This document shows positions 6,537 to 11,604 of a stretch of DNA of 31,906 bases, piece after piece; positions within the stretch are counted from its first letter, which is position 1; each line of letters starts with the position of its first letter. The stretch comes from Gemmatimonadota bacterium. GTDB taxonomy: Bacteria; Gemmatimonadota; Gemmatimonadetes; Gemmatimonadales; GWC2-71-9. Position numbers and translations under genes: made by a program. The notes under the pieces are model-generated. The model was given only the letters and a program-made list of their open reading frames with translations. It made no database searches and was not told the DNA's origin. The DNA lies in NCBI GenBank assembly GCA_039591795.1, contig JBDHCY010000035.1:1-31906 (forward strand), read 5' to 3'.

Positions 6537-8027
6537 TCACGCGCGGGCCGGGCTCGCCGACAGCCCGGGGGTCCCACCCTCCGCCATGGCAACCAGCTTC
6601 CGGTAGCGTCTGCCGATCGCCACCGCGACCACAAGCCAGCCGGCGATCAGGACGAGATTCACGAGGGCGAGCTGATTGAAGGCGAGGCCCACGAGCTTCG
6701 TGCCCCCGAACCACATCACCGCCGCCATGACATCGCCAGCGCGCTGGAAGAAGGAGTCCACGGCCTGTTTTCCCTTGTACTTCTCCTCCCGTGTCGTCGG
6801 CAGAAAGAGCGCCTGGCGCGCGGTGTTGTTGAGTGAGTAGTCGGTCGAGTTTTCCGCCGTCTTCGCCCAGCGAACGGCGGCGAGCAGCGGAACGAATGCG
6901 ATCAGGCCATAGGCCGCAAACGCGATGAGCGGGAGCACGAGTAGCGACCGGCCGACGCCCAGATACTTGAGTGCACGTGAGACGACGAACAGCTGCAAGA
7001 CCATCCCGATCAGATTCACCACCGTCTGGTACCCAGAGTAGAAGCGGACTGAGACCTGTTCGGCGGCTGCCTCGGTCGCAGCGGCGAGTCGGGCCTGTTC
7101 CACGAAGGCCGCGACGATGTTCTCCCCCGTCGTGTTTACCCAGTTCAAGAGGAGCACCAAGAGTGCGATGAGGAGGAGATACCGGTTCCGAAAGACGAGT
7201 TGAAATGCGCTCCCGGTGGATGCGGGTGCCGCCTCCCTCTCGCGGGCGAGGTCCTCTGGCCGGATCCGCTTGATCGCCGCGTACGATCCCGTTGCCTGTT
7301 GGTAGTCCTCCGTGGGCACCTTGAACTCGCCGGTGGCCATGCGAAGCTGGGCCGTCGCGGCAGGGAGCGAGCCGGTGGTCCCGACGGGAGCGGTCTGGAG
7401 CTCGGTGCGCCGTCGCTCACGGAGGTCCGCGATGTTCGTGATCACGGCGCCCACGATCAACATGGCCGCCGCGATGAGCAGTAATTGACTCAAGCCCACA
7501 AGCGACGTGAGCCAACTCGGAAGCCACGCGCCGACGACCGCTCCCGACGTCGCTCCGAACGCGACGAGCGGGAAGAGCCGCTTTCCCTCGTCCGCTGTGT
7601 AGACGTCGTTGGCAAACGACCAGAACTGCGCGATCACCATGACGTTGAAGATCCCGAGCCAAATGAAGAAGACGATCCCGACCGACACGCCGAGGACCCG
7701 GAGCGCGTAAAACGCAACGAGACACGCAACGAAGAAGCCAGTAACAATGTTGATCAGGCGCCGCCGCGGGACGCGCGCGGCGATGGCCCCATACAGCGGG
7801 ACCGCGCCGAGGAGGAGGAGCGCTTGTGCCGCCGCCGAGACGACGCGAGCGTCGACGCCACCCGCGGCGAGGACGAGCTCTTCACGCAACACCTTCATGA
7901 TCGAGTAGGCCGTGAGGATCAGGAAGATGTTGCTCATGAGGAGGAGCGCCGTGGCGCTCTCTCCCGATCGAATGTCGGTGAAGAGCCGGAGGAACCGCTC
8001 GCCCGGGCCGGCCGGAGGGGACTGCAC
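6537..8027 (-). CDS. AAA-family (TLC/Npt-type) ATP:ADP or nucleotide antiporter-like transporter, ~12 TM
   Basis: 496-aa polytopic membrane protein. The N-terminal region RFLRLFTDIRSGE...LLLMSNIFLILTAYSIMKVLREELV resembles TLC nucleotide translocases. It has a large central cytoplasmic loop. Start is GTG 8027. Confidence 0.55.
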   Translation of the reverse strand: MQSPPAGPGERFLRLFTDIRSGESATALLLMSNIFLILTAYSIMKVLREELVLAAGGVDARVVSAAAQALLLLGAVPLYGAIAARVPRRRLINIVTGFFVACLVAFYALRVLGVSVGIVFFIWLGIFNVMVIAQFWSFANDVYTADEGKRLFPLVAFGATSGAVVGAWLPSWLTSLVGLSQLLLIAAAMLIVGAVITNIADLRERRRTELQTAPVGTTGSLPAATAQLRMATGEFKVPTEDYQQATGSYAAIKRIRPEDLAREREAAPASTGSAFQLVFRNRYLLLIALLVLLLNWVNTTGENIVAAFVEQARLAAATEAAAEQVSVRFYSGYQTVVNLIGMVLQLFVVSRALKYLGVGRSLLVLPLIAFAAYGLIAFVPLLAAVRWAKTAENSTDYSLNNTARQALFLPTTREEKYKGKQAVDSFFQRAGDVMAAVMWFGGTKLVGLAFNQLALVNLVLIAGWLVVAVAIGRRYRKLVAMAEGGTPGLSASPARA

Positions 8028-8115: not shown

Positions 8116-9228
8116 TCAGCGCCACGTCTTCGGCACCGCCTCCGGCTTCGTGGCCTCGACTGCGCCGCCGGGAGACAGGGCGCCCTCGAGCCGCTGTCGG
8201 ATTCGCGGAAGGTCACGGAACCGAACGAGCTGTCGCTCGTCTTCGTCCCAGAGGGTCAGACCGAGGGTCTTGACACTCTCCCACAGCGTGAGGGTCGTGA
8301 CCCGCCGGAGTGCCGGATTCTCGTCGAAGCAGCGTTGCAGATGATAGTTCGGGATCCGGCTGGAGACGTGGTGAATGTGGTGGAGGCCGATACTCCCGGT
8401 GAACCATTGAAACACCTTCGGCATGACGAGGTGTGACGCGCCTTCGAGTCCCGCAGCGTGATAGTCCCACGCCTCTCGGTAGCGCCAATAGGTGTCCTCG
8501 TACTGGTGCTGAACGTAGAACAGATAGACGCCAATCGAGCCGGCAAGGAGTGTGATCGGAAGCTGCACGAGGAGAAAGCGCTCGATCCCCACGATCATCC
8601 ACATGAGCGCGACAACCGCAATGAGCCCGACATTCGACCAATGCACGCTCGCCCACTCGCGCCGCCATGAACGCGGGGCGTCCTGCGGCCATCGATGCTT
8701 GACCACGAACTGGTAGGTCGGACCGAGCACGAGCAAGACGGTCGGATGTCGATACAGACGATACAGGAAGCGCTTCAACCGCGAGCGGCTCAGATACTCC
8801 CGCACCGTCAACGTATCGACGTCGCCAAATCCGCGTGCGTCGAGGTTCCCAGACGTCGCGTGGTGCATCGCATGCGTCTTTCGCCAATAGGCGTACGGGA
8901 CCAGCGTGACGATGCCGAGTATCGACCCGAGGACATTGTTGACGCGTTGAGACGAAAAGAATGCGCCATGGCCGCAGTCATGCTGCAAGATGAAGAGGCG
9001 CACGATGAGAAGCGCCGCCGGGACGGCGAGCAACAGTGTCAGGCCGTAGCCGACCTCGAGGCTCCAGAGCATCAGCACCCATACGCCGATGAAGGGAAGC
9101 GTCGTGTTCAGCAATTGGTACAGCGCGCGCCAGGTGACCGGCTGGCGGTACGGCGCGAGAAGTGCGTTCCAGTCCACGCTGTCGGTCGCTGATCGCGTCG
9201 AGGCATCGCGGTGATCGAGTTGCTTCAT
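8116..9228 (-). CDS. membrane fatty acid desaturase (acyl-lipid desaturase family)
   Basis: Three His boxes are present: HDCGHGAFF, HAMHHATSGNLD and HHIHHVSSRIPNY. Hydrophobic segments fit a membrane desaturase. ATG start at 9228. Confidence 0.85.
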   Translation of the reverse strand: MKQLDHRDASTRSATDSVDWNALLAPYRQPVTWRALYQLLNTTLPFIGVWVLMLWSLEVGYGLTLLLAVPAALLIVRLFILQHDCGHGAFFSSQRVNNVLGSILGIVTLVPYAYWRKTHAMHHATSGNLDARGFGDVDTLTVREYLSRSRLKRFLYRLYRHPTVLLVLGPTYQFVVKHRWPQDAPRSWRREWASVHWSNVGLIAVVALMWMIVGIERFLLVQLPITLLAGSIGVYLFYVQHQYEDTYWRYREAWDYHAAGLEGASHLVMPKVFQWFTGSIGLHHIHHVSSRIPNYHLQRCFDENPALRRVTTLTLWESVKTLGLTLWDEDERQLVRFRDLPRIRQRLEGALSPGGAVEATKPEAVPKTWR

Positions 9229-9626: not shown

Positions 9627-9781
9627 CTTCGGACTCTCCCGGCGGGATGTCAACGCGCTCGGCCTGTAAGCTAAGTTACGGCCCTGCTGAGTGGGAGCAA
9701 TGCACCCGAGCTGCTCCGACCCCGGCGCCAAGCCGACCCTTCCCAATTGACACCCTCCGAGCGGGCACGCCATACTCTCGC

Positions 9782-10718
9782 GTGCACCCGCTCGAGCCCG
9801 TCACGCTCTCGGAGATCGTCGCGGCGCGCGATCGCGTTGCTGGGGCGGTCGTTCGAACGCCCCTCGTTCGACTCAACGTCGAGACCGACACGGCGATCTA
9901 CCTGAAGCTCGAGAACCTGCAGCCAATCGGCTCGTTCAAACTGCGCGGGGCGGGCAACGCCCTGCGCAAGATGGACTCGCGGGCGCTGCAGCGCGGCGTG
10001 TACACGGCGAGCGCGGGCAACATGGCGCAGGGCCTTGCCTGGGCGGCGCGTGAGCTCGGGATTACCTGTCGCGTCGTTGTCCCGGATCGGGCCCCGAAGG
10101 CCAAGCTCGACGCGATTCATCGCGGTGCCGTTCGACGAGTGGTGGCGCGTCATCGTCACGCATGAGTATCCGGGGCTCGACGAGACCTTTGTCCATCCGG
10201 TGAGCAACGCGGATGTCATAGCCGGGAACGGAACCATCGGCCTCGAGATCTTGGAGGATCTCCCCGACATGGCAACCGTCCTGGTGCCGTTCGGCGGTGG
10301 CGGACTCAGTTGCGGGATCGCCTCCGCCATCCGAACGCACGCCCCGGCTGTCCGGGTGTTCGCCTGCGAGATAGCGACTGCGGCACCCCTCAGGGCGTCT
10401 CTGCAGCTCGGGGGGCCGACGGAGGTGAAGCACGAACCGAGCTTCGTCGACGGGATCGGCGGGAAGAGCGTGCTCGACGAGATGTGGCCGCTCGTGCGTG
10501 AGTTGCTCGCCGGGTCGCTCGTGACCTCGGTCGAGGCGGTCGCCGCCGCCGTGCGGACGCTGGTCGAGCGCAATCGTGTTGTGGCCGAGGGCGCTGGTGC
10601 GACCCCGGTAGCGGTAGCGCTTGAGCACGCGCTGGAAGGCCCCGTCGTGTGCATCGTGTCTGGCGGCAACATCGATCCGTCCAAGCTCGCCGACATCCTG
10701 CGCGGCACGGTGCCGTAG
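9782..10718 (+). pseudogene. threonine/serine dehydratase-like PLP-dependent enzyme (fold type II), disrupted by a frameshift near 10115-10145
   Basis: The N-terminal half (frame of ORF 9647..10165) carries the PLP-lysine motif SFKLRGA and ASAGNMAQG. The C-terminal half (frame of ORF 10035..10718) carries FVHPVSNADVIAGNGTIGLEIL, the VPFGGGGLSCGIA glycine loop and a SGGNID C-terminus. The two halves use the same nucleotides in different frames around 10120-10140. The start is GTG 9782, aligned to the TdcB N-terminus. Confidence 0.6.
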
Positions 10719-10806
10719 CGCGTAACGAGAGGTGGCACTGATCCGCGGCCACTTGTCCGCGCACCACCTTCCTGGTAATTGTGTGTGCAGTCATGGGGGA
10801 TTCACG

Positions 10807-11604
10807 ATGAGCTCAACTCCAGTCGACCAGGTCGAAGCGCAAGAGCCGCTCGAAGCCGTGATCAAGGGCGAGGTGCTCCGCATGTATCAGGAGGTGGCGG
10901 ATCACCCCGACGCCGAGTTCCACTTCTTCCATGGCCGCGAGGCGGCAGAAATGCTCGGGTACGATCCTGAGTGGCTGGAGCAGGCCCCAGAAGGCGCCGT
11001 GGTCTCGTTTGCCGGAGTGGGGAACCCGCACGTGCGGAGCGAATTGCGGCCGGGCGAGACGGTGCTCGATCTTGGCAGCGGTGCCGGGCTCGACGGCATC
11101 ATCGCGTCCTGGCAGGTCGGGCCGACCGGTCGAGTCATCGGGGTCGACCTCAATCCGTCGATGTGCATCAAGGCACAGGCCCACGCCGCCGCGTCGGGGA
11201 CTCGGATCGAGTGTCAGGAGGGCCGAATGGAGGAGATCCCCCTCCCCGACGCCAGCGTCGACGTCGTCATCTCGAACGGCGTGATCAACCTGTCGTTCCG
11301 GAAGCGGCTCGTCGTCCGCGAGCTGTTTCGCGTCTTGAAGCCTGGTGGCCGCATCTCGATCACCGACATCGTGAGCGCGAGACAACTGTCACAGTCCATC
11401 GTCAACGACCCCAAACTGTGGGCCAGTTGAATCGGTGGCGCTCTCCCGGAGGGAGAGATGTTCGCGCTGCTCGAGAAGGCCGGGTTCAAGCGAGTGCGCT
11501 CCGCAGCCGTGCCCGGCTTCGCGTTCCGCAAGGACTCGACCAGGGATGCCGCCGAGGCCTACGGGGTGAAGTCTGTGATGATGACCGCTCGCAAGCCCGA
11601 CTGA
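10807..11604 (+). CDS. ArsM/AS3MT-like SAM-dependent methyltransferase with an in-frame UGA (11428-11430) at the conserved Cys position; candidate selenoprotein (265 aa if read through)
   Basis: ATG 10807 is preceded by GGGGGA with a 6-nt spacer. SAM-binding VLDLGSGAG is present, as are IPLPDASVDVVISNGVINLS and FRVLKPGG, which match ArsM. The ORF hits TGA at 11428-11430. The same frame stays open 57 more codons (IGGALPEGEMFALLEKAGFKRV...SVMMTARKPD) to TGA 11602-11604 and continues to align with ArsM/AS3MT. The UGA aligns to Cys in LW(V/G)(G/E)C(L/I)(A/G)GAL. Confidence 0.6.
11441..11457 (+). promoter_or_regulatory. SECIS-like GC-rich hairpin (CUCUCCC-GGA-GGGAGAG) beginning 11 nt downstream of the in-frame UGA
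   Basis: Perfect 7-bp inverted repeat with a G-containing apical loop. The 10-nt spacing from the UGA matches bacterial SECIS placement. The hairpin lies inside the coding frame (encodes LPEGE). Confidence 0.4.

Follow-up and report, generated by a model that had tools for sequence, protein, structure and literature searches.

Does the TGA at positions 11428-11430 of this stretch of DNA end a gene, or is it read as an amino acid? The window, that is, the whole stretch of 31,906 nucleotides (nt) of contig JBDHCY010000035.1 that was analysed here (G+C content 67%), has on its forward strand an open reading frame (ORF) that runs from ATG 10807 to 11427 and stops at this TGA. The public annotation of the gene stops there as well (P0002, 207 residues, same contig). 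In the same frame, 57 further sense codons (11431-11601; IGGALPEGEMFALLEKAGF...MMTARKPD), which would be translated only if the UGA is decoded, lead to a second TGA at 11602-11604. An earlier note on this DNA had proposed that the first TGA is a selenocysteine (Sec) codon, standing for the conserved cysteine of a methyltransferase like ArsM and AS3MT and followed by a hairpin that resembles a selenocysteine insertion sequence (SECIS). All coordinates of the ORF, the tail and the hairpin were correct. From the comparisons described below, we consider it very probable that UGA 11428-11430 is a Sec codon with a bacterial SECIS-type hairpin in a gene of the ArsM/AS3MT superfamily. The complete putative selenoprotein gene (10807-11604, forward strand) would encode a 265-residue ArsM-like class I S-adenosylmethionine (SAM) methyltransferase with Sec at residue 208, judged by its translation, its Pfam domains, ArsM/AS3MT as nearest relatives and full-length read-through homologues.

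We scanned one genome per species for orthologues and obtained 80 loci, almost all of them from Gemmatimonadota metagenome-assembled genomes (MAGs). Together with the window and one duplicate, these made up 82 orthologous places. Complete chromosomes with the gene include CP070792.1, CP070666.1 and CP070722.1, from Gemmatimonadota, and CAVQSR010000001.1. The codon at residue 208 was TGA in all 82 places (80 species-level genomes, independent assemblies), and the tail, IGGAL[PL]EGE.F.L.E..GF..., followed in frame in every one of them. Whether orthologues carry Cys or UGA here, a question raised by the earlier note, was thus settled for UGA; Cys appeared in more distant homologues. Three distant homologues with about 44% identity (L082-L084) also had TGA and an in-frame tail. 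The entropies at the three codon positions were 0.51/0.35/1.26 bits in the tail versus 0.37/0.26/1.20 bits in the upstream part. Such a profile in the aligned genes is the mark of a translated frame and argues for protein-level selection on the tail. The orthologues ended at the position of the second TGA (11602-11604, forward strand), which appears to be the true stop, or within a few codons of it. Their terminal stops were TGA in 39 places, TAG in 31 and TAA in 12. As the gene itself often ends with TGA, these genomes still use the triplet as a stop. We also considered whether TGA 11602 might encode a second Sec, in the style of the UXPK-star proteins, but the orthologues that end in TAG or TAA ruled this out.

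A nonsense mutation, a decaying pseudogene or a sequencing error in this contig would interrupt the frame in the same way, and the adjoining gene gives such a reading some substance. Just upstream, a PALP gene (9647-10718, forward strand; pyridoxal-phosphate-dependent, threonine-dehydratase-like) is split over two overlapping frames, of which 9647-10165 corresponds to positions 3-98 of the Pfam profile and 10035-10718 to positions 129-295. The split points to a frameshift near 10120-10185, due to a pseudogene or an assembly error, so the contig holds at least one frameshift or error. The TGA at residue 208, however, recurred in independent assemblies and in the homologues of about 44% identity, and the tail behind it is under purifying selection. 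Because the TGA is conserved in 82 of 82 places, mutation or sequencing error, which the earlier note had listed as an alternative, has practically no chance of being the explanation.

Some of the loci did not carry a Gemmatimonadota label. MAGs that bear the labels Bipolaricaulota, Akkermansiaceae, Acidimicrobiia, Acidobacteriota and Eisenbacteria contained genes that share the TGA and the hairpin of the window gene and are 76-80% identical to it (L061, CP070725.1; L068; L071; L029; L058/L065/L077). These are either mis-binned Gemmatimonadota contigs or cases of recent horizontal transfer.

The tail is also a structural part of the predicted enzyme. An AlphaFold2 model of a read-through protein (P0001) reached a mean predicted local distance difference test score (pLDDT) of 93.7 and a predicted template modelling score (pTM) of 0.90. 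In this model, the tail forms helices at 219-229 and 248-256 and strands at 232-238 and 259-266, and both strands belong to the core sheet with pLDDT >90. As the tail (11431-11601, forward strand), which begins with the IGGAL motif, supplies the last two beta-strands of the methyltransferase sheet, a product of 207 residues would be expected to miss part of the core fold. The 207-residue product in the databases therefore seems to be an annotation artefact. The same truncation was widespread. Our protein search found more than 100 protein clusters with 78-87% identity and lengths of 203-207 residues, each ending ...DPKLWAS, and both NCBI and Joint Genome Institute (JGI) records describe the window gene and these clusters as 'methyltransferase domain-containing' fragments. 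The sole 'full-length' cluster was P0001, which has W at the Sec column; its DNA (L087, 727-729) reads TGA, and the JGI gene caller had used Trp. Two other public calls have W (P0146) and G (P0199) at this column, and they may represent the same alternative-code artefact.

Which residue does the UGA replace? The window protein matched the Pfam families Methyltransf_31, Methyltransf_25 and Methyltransf_11, which are class I SAM methyltransferase domains. Its best matches among solved sequences were the CmArsM chains 4FR0, 4FS8 and 5EG5 (phmmer, E 2e-24), and the best fold matches were CmArsM (4FR0 and 6CX6), CrArsM and human AS3MT (Foldseek E 1e-20, TMq 0.69-0.71). In the phmmer alignment, the UGA fell on Cys224 of CmArsM (GECLGGAL vs ASxIGGAL), in line with the placement on the conserved cysteine in the earlier note. 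We take this residue to be Cys206 of AS3MT by the established numbering. SAM-binding motif I (VLDLGSGAG, residues 86-94; 11062-11088, forward strand) aligned with the same motif of CmArsM and was invariant or nearly so in 81 orthologues. A possible Shine-Dalgarno site (GGGGG, 10795-10799, forward strand) lies 7 nt 5' of ATG 10807, as judged from the letters alone.

The hairpin itself occupies 11441-11457 of the forward strand, as the earlier note had described it. Its 7-bp stem pairs CTCTCCC (11441-11447) with GGGAGAG (11451-11457) around a GGA loop (11448-11450). The stem starts at nt 11 after the TGA, behind a 10-nt spacer (11431-11440) that comprises the Ile-Gly-Gly codons and the first base of an Ala codon. 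Among 81 sequences, 98.9% of the stem cells were paired, versus 52-78% in controls with the partner arm slid. The loop was closed by U-A in 41 sequences and by C-G in 39; one sequence had U-G. A replacement between Pro and Leu on one arm of the stem was always matched by a synonymous change between GAG and GAA on the other. On a neighbour-joining tree built without these codons, the closing pair had switched its state at least five times independently. We also surveyed the 62 conserved four-fold degenerate codons of the gene, whose mean third-position entropy (H3) was 1.43 bits. H3 fell below 0.2 at only three of them, and these were the stem codons +4 (Ala GCT), +5 (Leu CTC) and +8 (Gly GGA) after the UGA. 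Comparatively, the Gly codons +2 and +3 in the spacer used all four third bases (H3 = 1.8 bits) and encoded invariant amino acids. This combination implied that the spacer is translated and that it carries no constraint at the RNA level.

The GGA loop was invariant in the clade, at 18-20 nt after the UGA. The three distant homologues had an 8-bp hairpin at the same offset from the TGA, with a spacer of equal length. Its letters were GCUCUGCC GGA GGCAGAGC in two of them and GCUCUGCU CAA AGCAGAGC in the third (L082). Relative to the window, these hairpins contained a further compensated pair, in which C-G had become G-C through a Gly-to-Ala replacement and a synonymous Leu change. The two Cys-type homologues examined (L085 with TGC, L086 with TGT) had no hairpin at this position. 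Together, these comparisons support RNA-level selection on the hairpin, with compensatory changes. In bacterial SECIS elements, the apical loop lies 16-37 nt from the UGA and has a G in its first positions. The geometry of the hairpin and its G-containing loop are consistent with these rules.

Another view of the hairpin is that it is a by-product of the conserved peptide ALPEGE/ALLEGE, or a regulatory pause site, and not a SECIS. Its stem is indeed made of codons for conserved residues, and a single sequence reveals no energetic excess. But conservation of amino acids cannot freeze the third bases of four-fold codons (GCT, CTC and GGA) next to Gly codons that use four bases, and it does not explain why each Pro/Leu change meets its synonymous GAG/GAA partner on the other arm. 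Moreover, the Cys-type homologues encode similar peptides (CIGGA...) without a hairpin. We regard a by-product or a pause site as extremely unlikely.

The sequence just behind the hairpin raised a further alternative, which the earlier note had also mentioned. Translation might stop at UGA 11428, and the tail might be expressed separately from ATG 11458, which is directly 3' of the hairpin, with the purine-rich GGAGGGAGAG of the hairpin as ribosome-binding site, so that two polypeptides assemble. In agreement with this, codon +10 was a usual start codon in 78 of 81 orthologues (ATG 67, GTG 9, TTG 2), and GGAGGGAGAG does precede ATG 11458. However, codons +1 to +9 (IGGAL[PL]EGE), which lie 5' of this ATG, were invariant or nearly so as protein, and because they are conserved as protein with free third positions in their Gly codons, they appear to be translated. 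In the other three of the 81 orthologues, codon +10 was CTG, GCG or CTC, and it was CTC, CTC and CTG in the three distant homologues. The Cys-type homologues are single ORFs, and pairing, unlike a ribosome-binding site, accounts for the C-G/U-A covariation. A split gene is thus highly improbable.

If the gene is one and the tail is translated, the UGA could still be read through without selenium, by a near-cognate or suppressor tRNA inserting Trp, Cys or Gly or by another form of recoding, and the hairpin would then merely slow termination. This alternative has to be weighed together with several observations that count against Sec decoding at this locus, the first being the absence of the machinery from what was searched. 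ARAGORN runs on the window, on 60 loci and on all 82 sequences gave no tRNA-Sec, and selA, selB and selD were seen neither in the window nor across 1.2 Mb of related loci. A tblastn search of these 1.2 Mb with E. coli SelA, SelB and SelD sequences returned one generic GTPase match only, and the Pfam annotation of 30 ORFs in the window revealed no sel genes. On its own, the hairpin is also unimpressive. In the window sequence alone, the local fold had a z of -1.23 against shuffles, a perfect 7-bp hairpin lay 8-20 nt downstream of 1.4% of window positions, and 9 of the 353 TGA triplets in the window were followed by one at that distance. From one sequence the hairpin is insignificant, and its significance comes only from comparing genomes. 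The SECIS loop of E. coli fdhF contains G-U, which the GGA loop does not have, and the CAA loop of L082 has no G. Neither the hairpin nor any other part of the window matched an Rfam family. In addition, only one of the four ArsM cysteines is kept, which bears on the substrate. When the ORFs within 5 kb of the gene were clustered over 81 loci, neither a conserved operon nor ars or mer genes appeared, and the commonest neighbour family (PD40-like repeats) occurred in only 20 loci.

Decoding without selenium also had in its favour that some gene callers place W at this codon, although this shows only that alternative codes 'rescue' the ORF. Against it, TGA is a normal stop that ends this very gene in 39 of 82 places. 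The codon stands at the catalytic Cys of the homologues, which is the classic Sec/Cys pair and has precedent in the family (PMC13188914), and the hairpin geometry with its G-rich loop fits a bacterial SECIS. Other genes of known Sec families with an in-frame TGA also occurred in the lineage. A screen of the window for further read-through TGAs, based on G+C content at third codon positions (GC3), returned only antisense shadow frames besides the target. A screen of the related loci, in which we looked for an in-frame TGA with a hairpin behind it, revealed two further genes that match known selenoprotein families, with the TGA at the catalytic residue. One of them (L026, reverse strand, TGA at 8264 in an ORF from 9068 down to about 8115) encodes a DedA/VTT-rhodanese fusion, ...VLYCT-U-PNEASSARVA..., with a 7-bp hairpin after the TGA. 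This TGA lies at the rhodanese active-site loop, and the best NCBIfam match was the rhodanese_LYCAU (seleno)protein model (77 bits; cutoff 115). It is likely a second selenoprotein in a Gemmatimonadota genome that carries the methyltransferase. The other (L060, forward strand, TGA at 6630) encodes a peroxiredoxin-like AhpC/TSA protein with FYRGWW-U-PYC (UxxC) and a 7-bp hairpin with a GGG loop 14 nt downstream, and it is likely a selenoprotein of an uncultured Gemmatimonas genome. The two genes provide indirect support for Sec decoding in the lineage. We consider selenium-free read-through to be very unlikely.

Two other observations were made at these related loci. Near the AhpC/TSA gene of L060 are an ArsR-rhodanese gene and a gene resembling sulfide:quinone reductase. 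An ordinary tRNA-Cys(GCA) gene was found at L064 (10814-10886, reverse strand), L077 (9553-9627, reverse strand) and L011 (4360-4432, forward strand). It directly adjoins the methyltransferase gene in two of these loci and lies within 6 kb of it in the third. This proximity is probably local synteny, and a GCA anticodon cannot read UGA.

The proposal of a Sec codon with a SECIS-like hairpin has therefore held up under the conservation of the TGA, the selection on the tail, the covariation of the hairpin and the Cys-type homologues that lack it. The locus shows several of the features by which selenoprotein genes are recognised: an in-frame UGA at the Cys column of homologues, its conservation among orthologues with coding selection on the downstream frame, a structure-conserved stem-loop 3' of it with the loop at +18 to +20, and the absence of this hairpin from Cys homologues (two cases). 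On this basis we infer selenium incorporation with the involvement of SelB and tRNA-Sec, and the following course of events. A ribosome would arrive at UGA 11428-11430, and the hairpin at 11441-11457, acting as a bacterial SECIS, would be bound by SelB with Sec-tRNA(Sec), so that Sec is inserted and translation does not terminate. Translation would then run on to the real stop at 11602-11604, and the tail would complete the Rossmann-type sheet of the 265-residue enzyme. Sec208 would stand beside the SAM site, in place of the As(III)-binding Cys224 of CmArsM. There it would most likely hold the substrate during methyl transfer, as a soft selenolate ligand.

What the substrate might be depends on the other cysteines. 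The window protein has no cysteine before residue 120, and among Cys44, Cys72, Cys174 and Cys224 of CmArsM only the last is kept, as Sec. Val71 (codon 11017-11019, forward strand) occupies the Cys72 position (FYGCGS vs FAGVGN by phmmer; AGVGNP invariant in the clade). Gly158 (codon 11278-11280, forward strand) occupies the Cys174 position (VISNCVCN vs VISNGVIN; SNGV invariant in the clade). By a published working definition, an ArsM needs three or more of the four conserved cysteines 44/72/174/224 (PMC5552862). With one of four, the window protein is not an ArsM in this sense. It scored 208.9 bits (E = 1e-61, Cys put for Sec) against the NCBIfam model NF008823, whose cutoff is 263. As the earlier note had it, the protein is ArsM/AS3MT-like, and its fold, SAM motif and nearest structures agree with this; to call it an ArsM would overstate the case. 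As Cys72 has become Val and Cys174 has become Gly, As(III) methylation cannot be assumed and the 'arsenite' label is unsafe. We considered C120 and C136 as substitute arsenic ligands. Neither varies within the clade, but the same columns are L/I/V/F in other homologues, and the idea was dropped; the two residues are probably buried. An intermediate cysteine pattern was seen in the close relative P0124 (a representative of 202 residues, 73% identical over the matched stretch and ending ...DPKLWAS), which has Cys at the Cys72 equivalent (LGCGNP) and Gly at the Cys174 equivalent.

To place the clade, we searched exhaustively among 50%-identity representatives, in which the whole Gemmatimonadota clade forms one cluster, and classified the best 150. 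Among these, 64 were canonical three-Cys ArsMs and 31 were proteins that we grouped in this analysis as 'single-Cys' (AG[VT]G / SNGV / LW..C); the column of residue 208 was Cys in both groups. Another 25 ended exactly before the Cys column and had Gly at the Cys174 position. They are presumably further Sec forms. We know of no published name for single-Cys ArsM-like methyltransferases. Their identity to the window protein is about 36-48%, and they share with it V/T, G, and Cys or Sec at the three columns. Several of them are fused to MerC, a MerTP-like domain, DsbA/Thioredoxin_5, TusA or DUF2652, whereas the Gemmatimonadota protein is stand-alone and differs from the group by its clade-specific C120 and C136. 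The two Cys-type homologues L085 (1621-3743) and L086 (1265-2958) lie divergently beside a conserved trio of genes, which encode a second methyltransferase (a MerC fusion at L085), an extracytoplasmic function (ECF) sigma factor and a zf-HC2 anti-sigma factor. This trio suggests a stress-regulated soft-metal or thiol module.

The fusions with MerC, MerTP-like, DsbA and TusA domains and the sigma-factor context hint at soft-metal, thiol or chalcogen chemistry. The window enzyme is part of a 'single Cys/Sec' branch that is widespread in the superfamily, and its substrate may be something other than As(III), such as another soft metalloid, metal or chalcogen species. Because the Cys72 and Cys174 ligands are lost, and because of these fusions and the sigma-factor setting of L085 and L086, this branch might even be a functionally distinct family that does not methylate As(III), with the Gemmatimonadota clade as its obligately selenium-dependent member. 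We put this forward tentatively and think it somewhat less likely to be right than wrong. If it is true, a lone selenolate or thiolate would capture Hg(II), selenide, tellurite species, a persulfide or a thiol for SAM-dependent methylation.

For annotation, the consequence is that the real product is predicted to have about 265 residues with an active-site Sec, in place of the recorded fragments of 203-207 residues, and that an abundant phylum of soils and sediments appears to have a conserved selenium requirement. As Sec is fixed in every species examined and two ArsM partner cysteines are missing, the clade would offer a clean natural test of a single selenolate in an ArsM-type site. It also bears on whether such enzymes methylate arsenic, and on the use of arsM-like genes as metagenome markers of arsenic methylation.

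How does the gene compare with known systems? The earlier note had supposed that Sec-containing ArsM-like enzymes were not established and that this might be a new family. This supposition was mistaken, as there has been precedent since 2007 and three NCBIfam models describe Sec forms. The top NCBIfam matches to the methyltransferase part were these models, with 216 bits for NF041537, 187 for NF041536 and 194.9 for NF047649, and their cutoffs of 510, 575 and 460 bits, respectively, were not reached. The three models reportedly come from Haft and Tolstoy in 2025. The proteins they describe (NF041537, ArsM/AhpD; NF041536, ArsM/DUF2284; NF047649, methyltransferase/UXPK-star) share the UxxG Sec motif with the window protein (PMC13188914). 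The first two differ from it in having a fused AhpD or DUF2284 domain and an extra Sec, whereas the window protein ends after the methyltransferase domain. NF047649 proteins have a second Sec in a C-terminal U-x-P-K-stop; unlike them, the window protein ends ARKPD-TGA, followed by AHLG..., which does not match x-P-K-stop, and 43 of the 82 orthologous places terminate with TAG or TAA. It therefore belongs to none of the three.

The closest known system is the selenoprotein family 'arsenite S-adenosylmethyltransferase' with the Sec motif UxxG, which Table 1 of PMC13188914 lists and credits to Fomenko et al. 2007 (Science 315:387). The family was present in the Global Ocean Sampling (GOS) selenoproteome (Zhang & Gladyshev 2008, PMC2398784) and was counted in 39 organisms (Peng et al. 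2016, PMC5029168). Sec-ArsM proteins published as representatives include WP_011987699.1, WP_391856372.1, WP_272482928.1 and WP_349247334.1. The members of the family (PRK11873/NF008823-like) share with the window gene an ArsM-like class I SAM methyltransferase, a U-x-x-G whose U aligns with the Cys in C[LIV][AG]G, and a SECIS-type hairpin within the coding region just 3' of the UGA. In the sense of Zhang and Gladyshev, the window protein is a PRK11873-type homologue with Sec in UxxG, its motif being U-I-G-G. It differs in scoring below the NF008823 cutoff and, relative to CmArsM, in lacking equivalents of Cys72 and Cys174. With CmArsM and human AS3MT (4FR0, 4FS8, 6CX6, 8XT7) it shares the SAM motif, and its Sec column is that of the As(III) ligand Cys224; the differences are that it keeps one of the four cysteines and is without the extra C-terminal domain of the eukaryotic enzymes. 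As the Sec ArsM-like family is already established, the window gene does not represent a new selenoprotein family, and the known picture, that ArsM-like enzymes can be selenoproteins, is unchanged. Literature searches for selenoproteins in Gemmatimonadota gave nothing relevant, and we found no mention of such a clade in the papers searched. Set against these systems, the new element is a modest one, namely a phylum-wide and apparently obligately Sec clade of Gemmatimonadota that is truncated in the databases and lacks the partner cysteines of ArsM.

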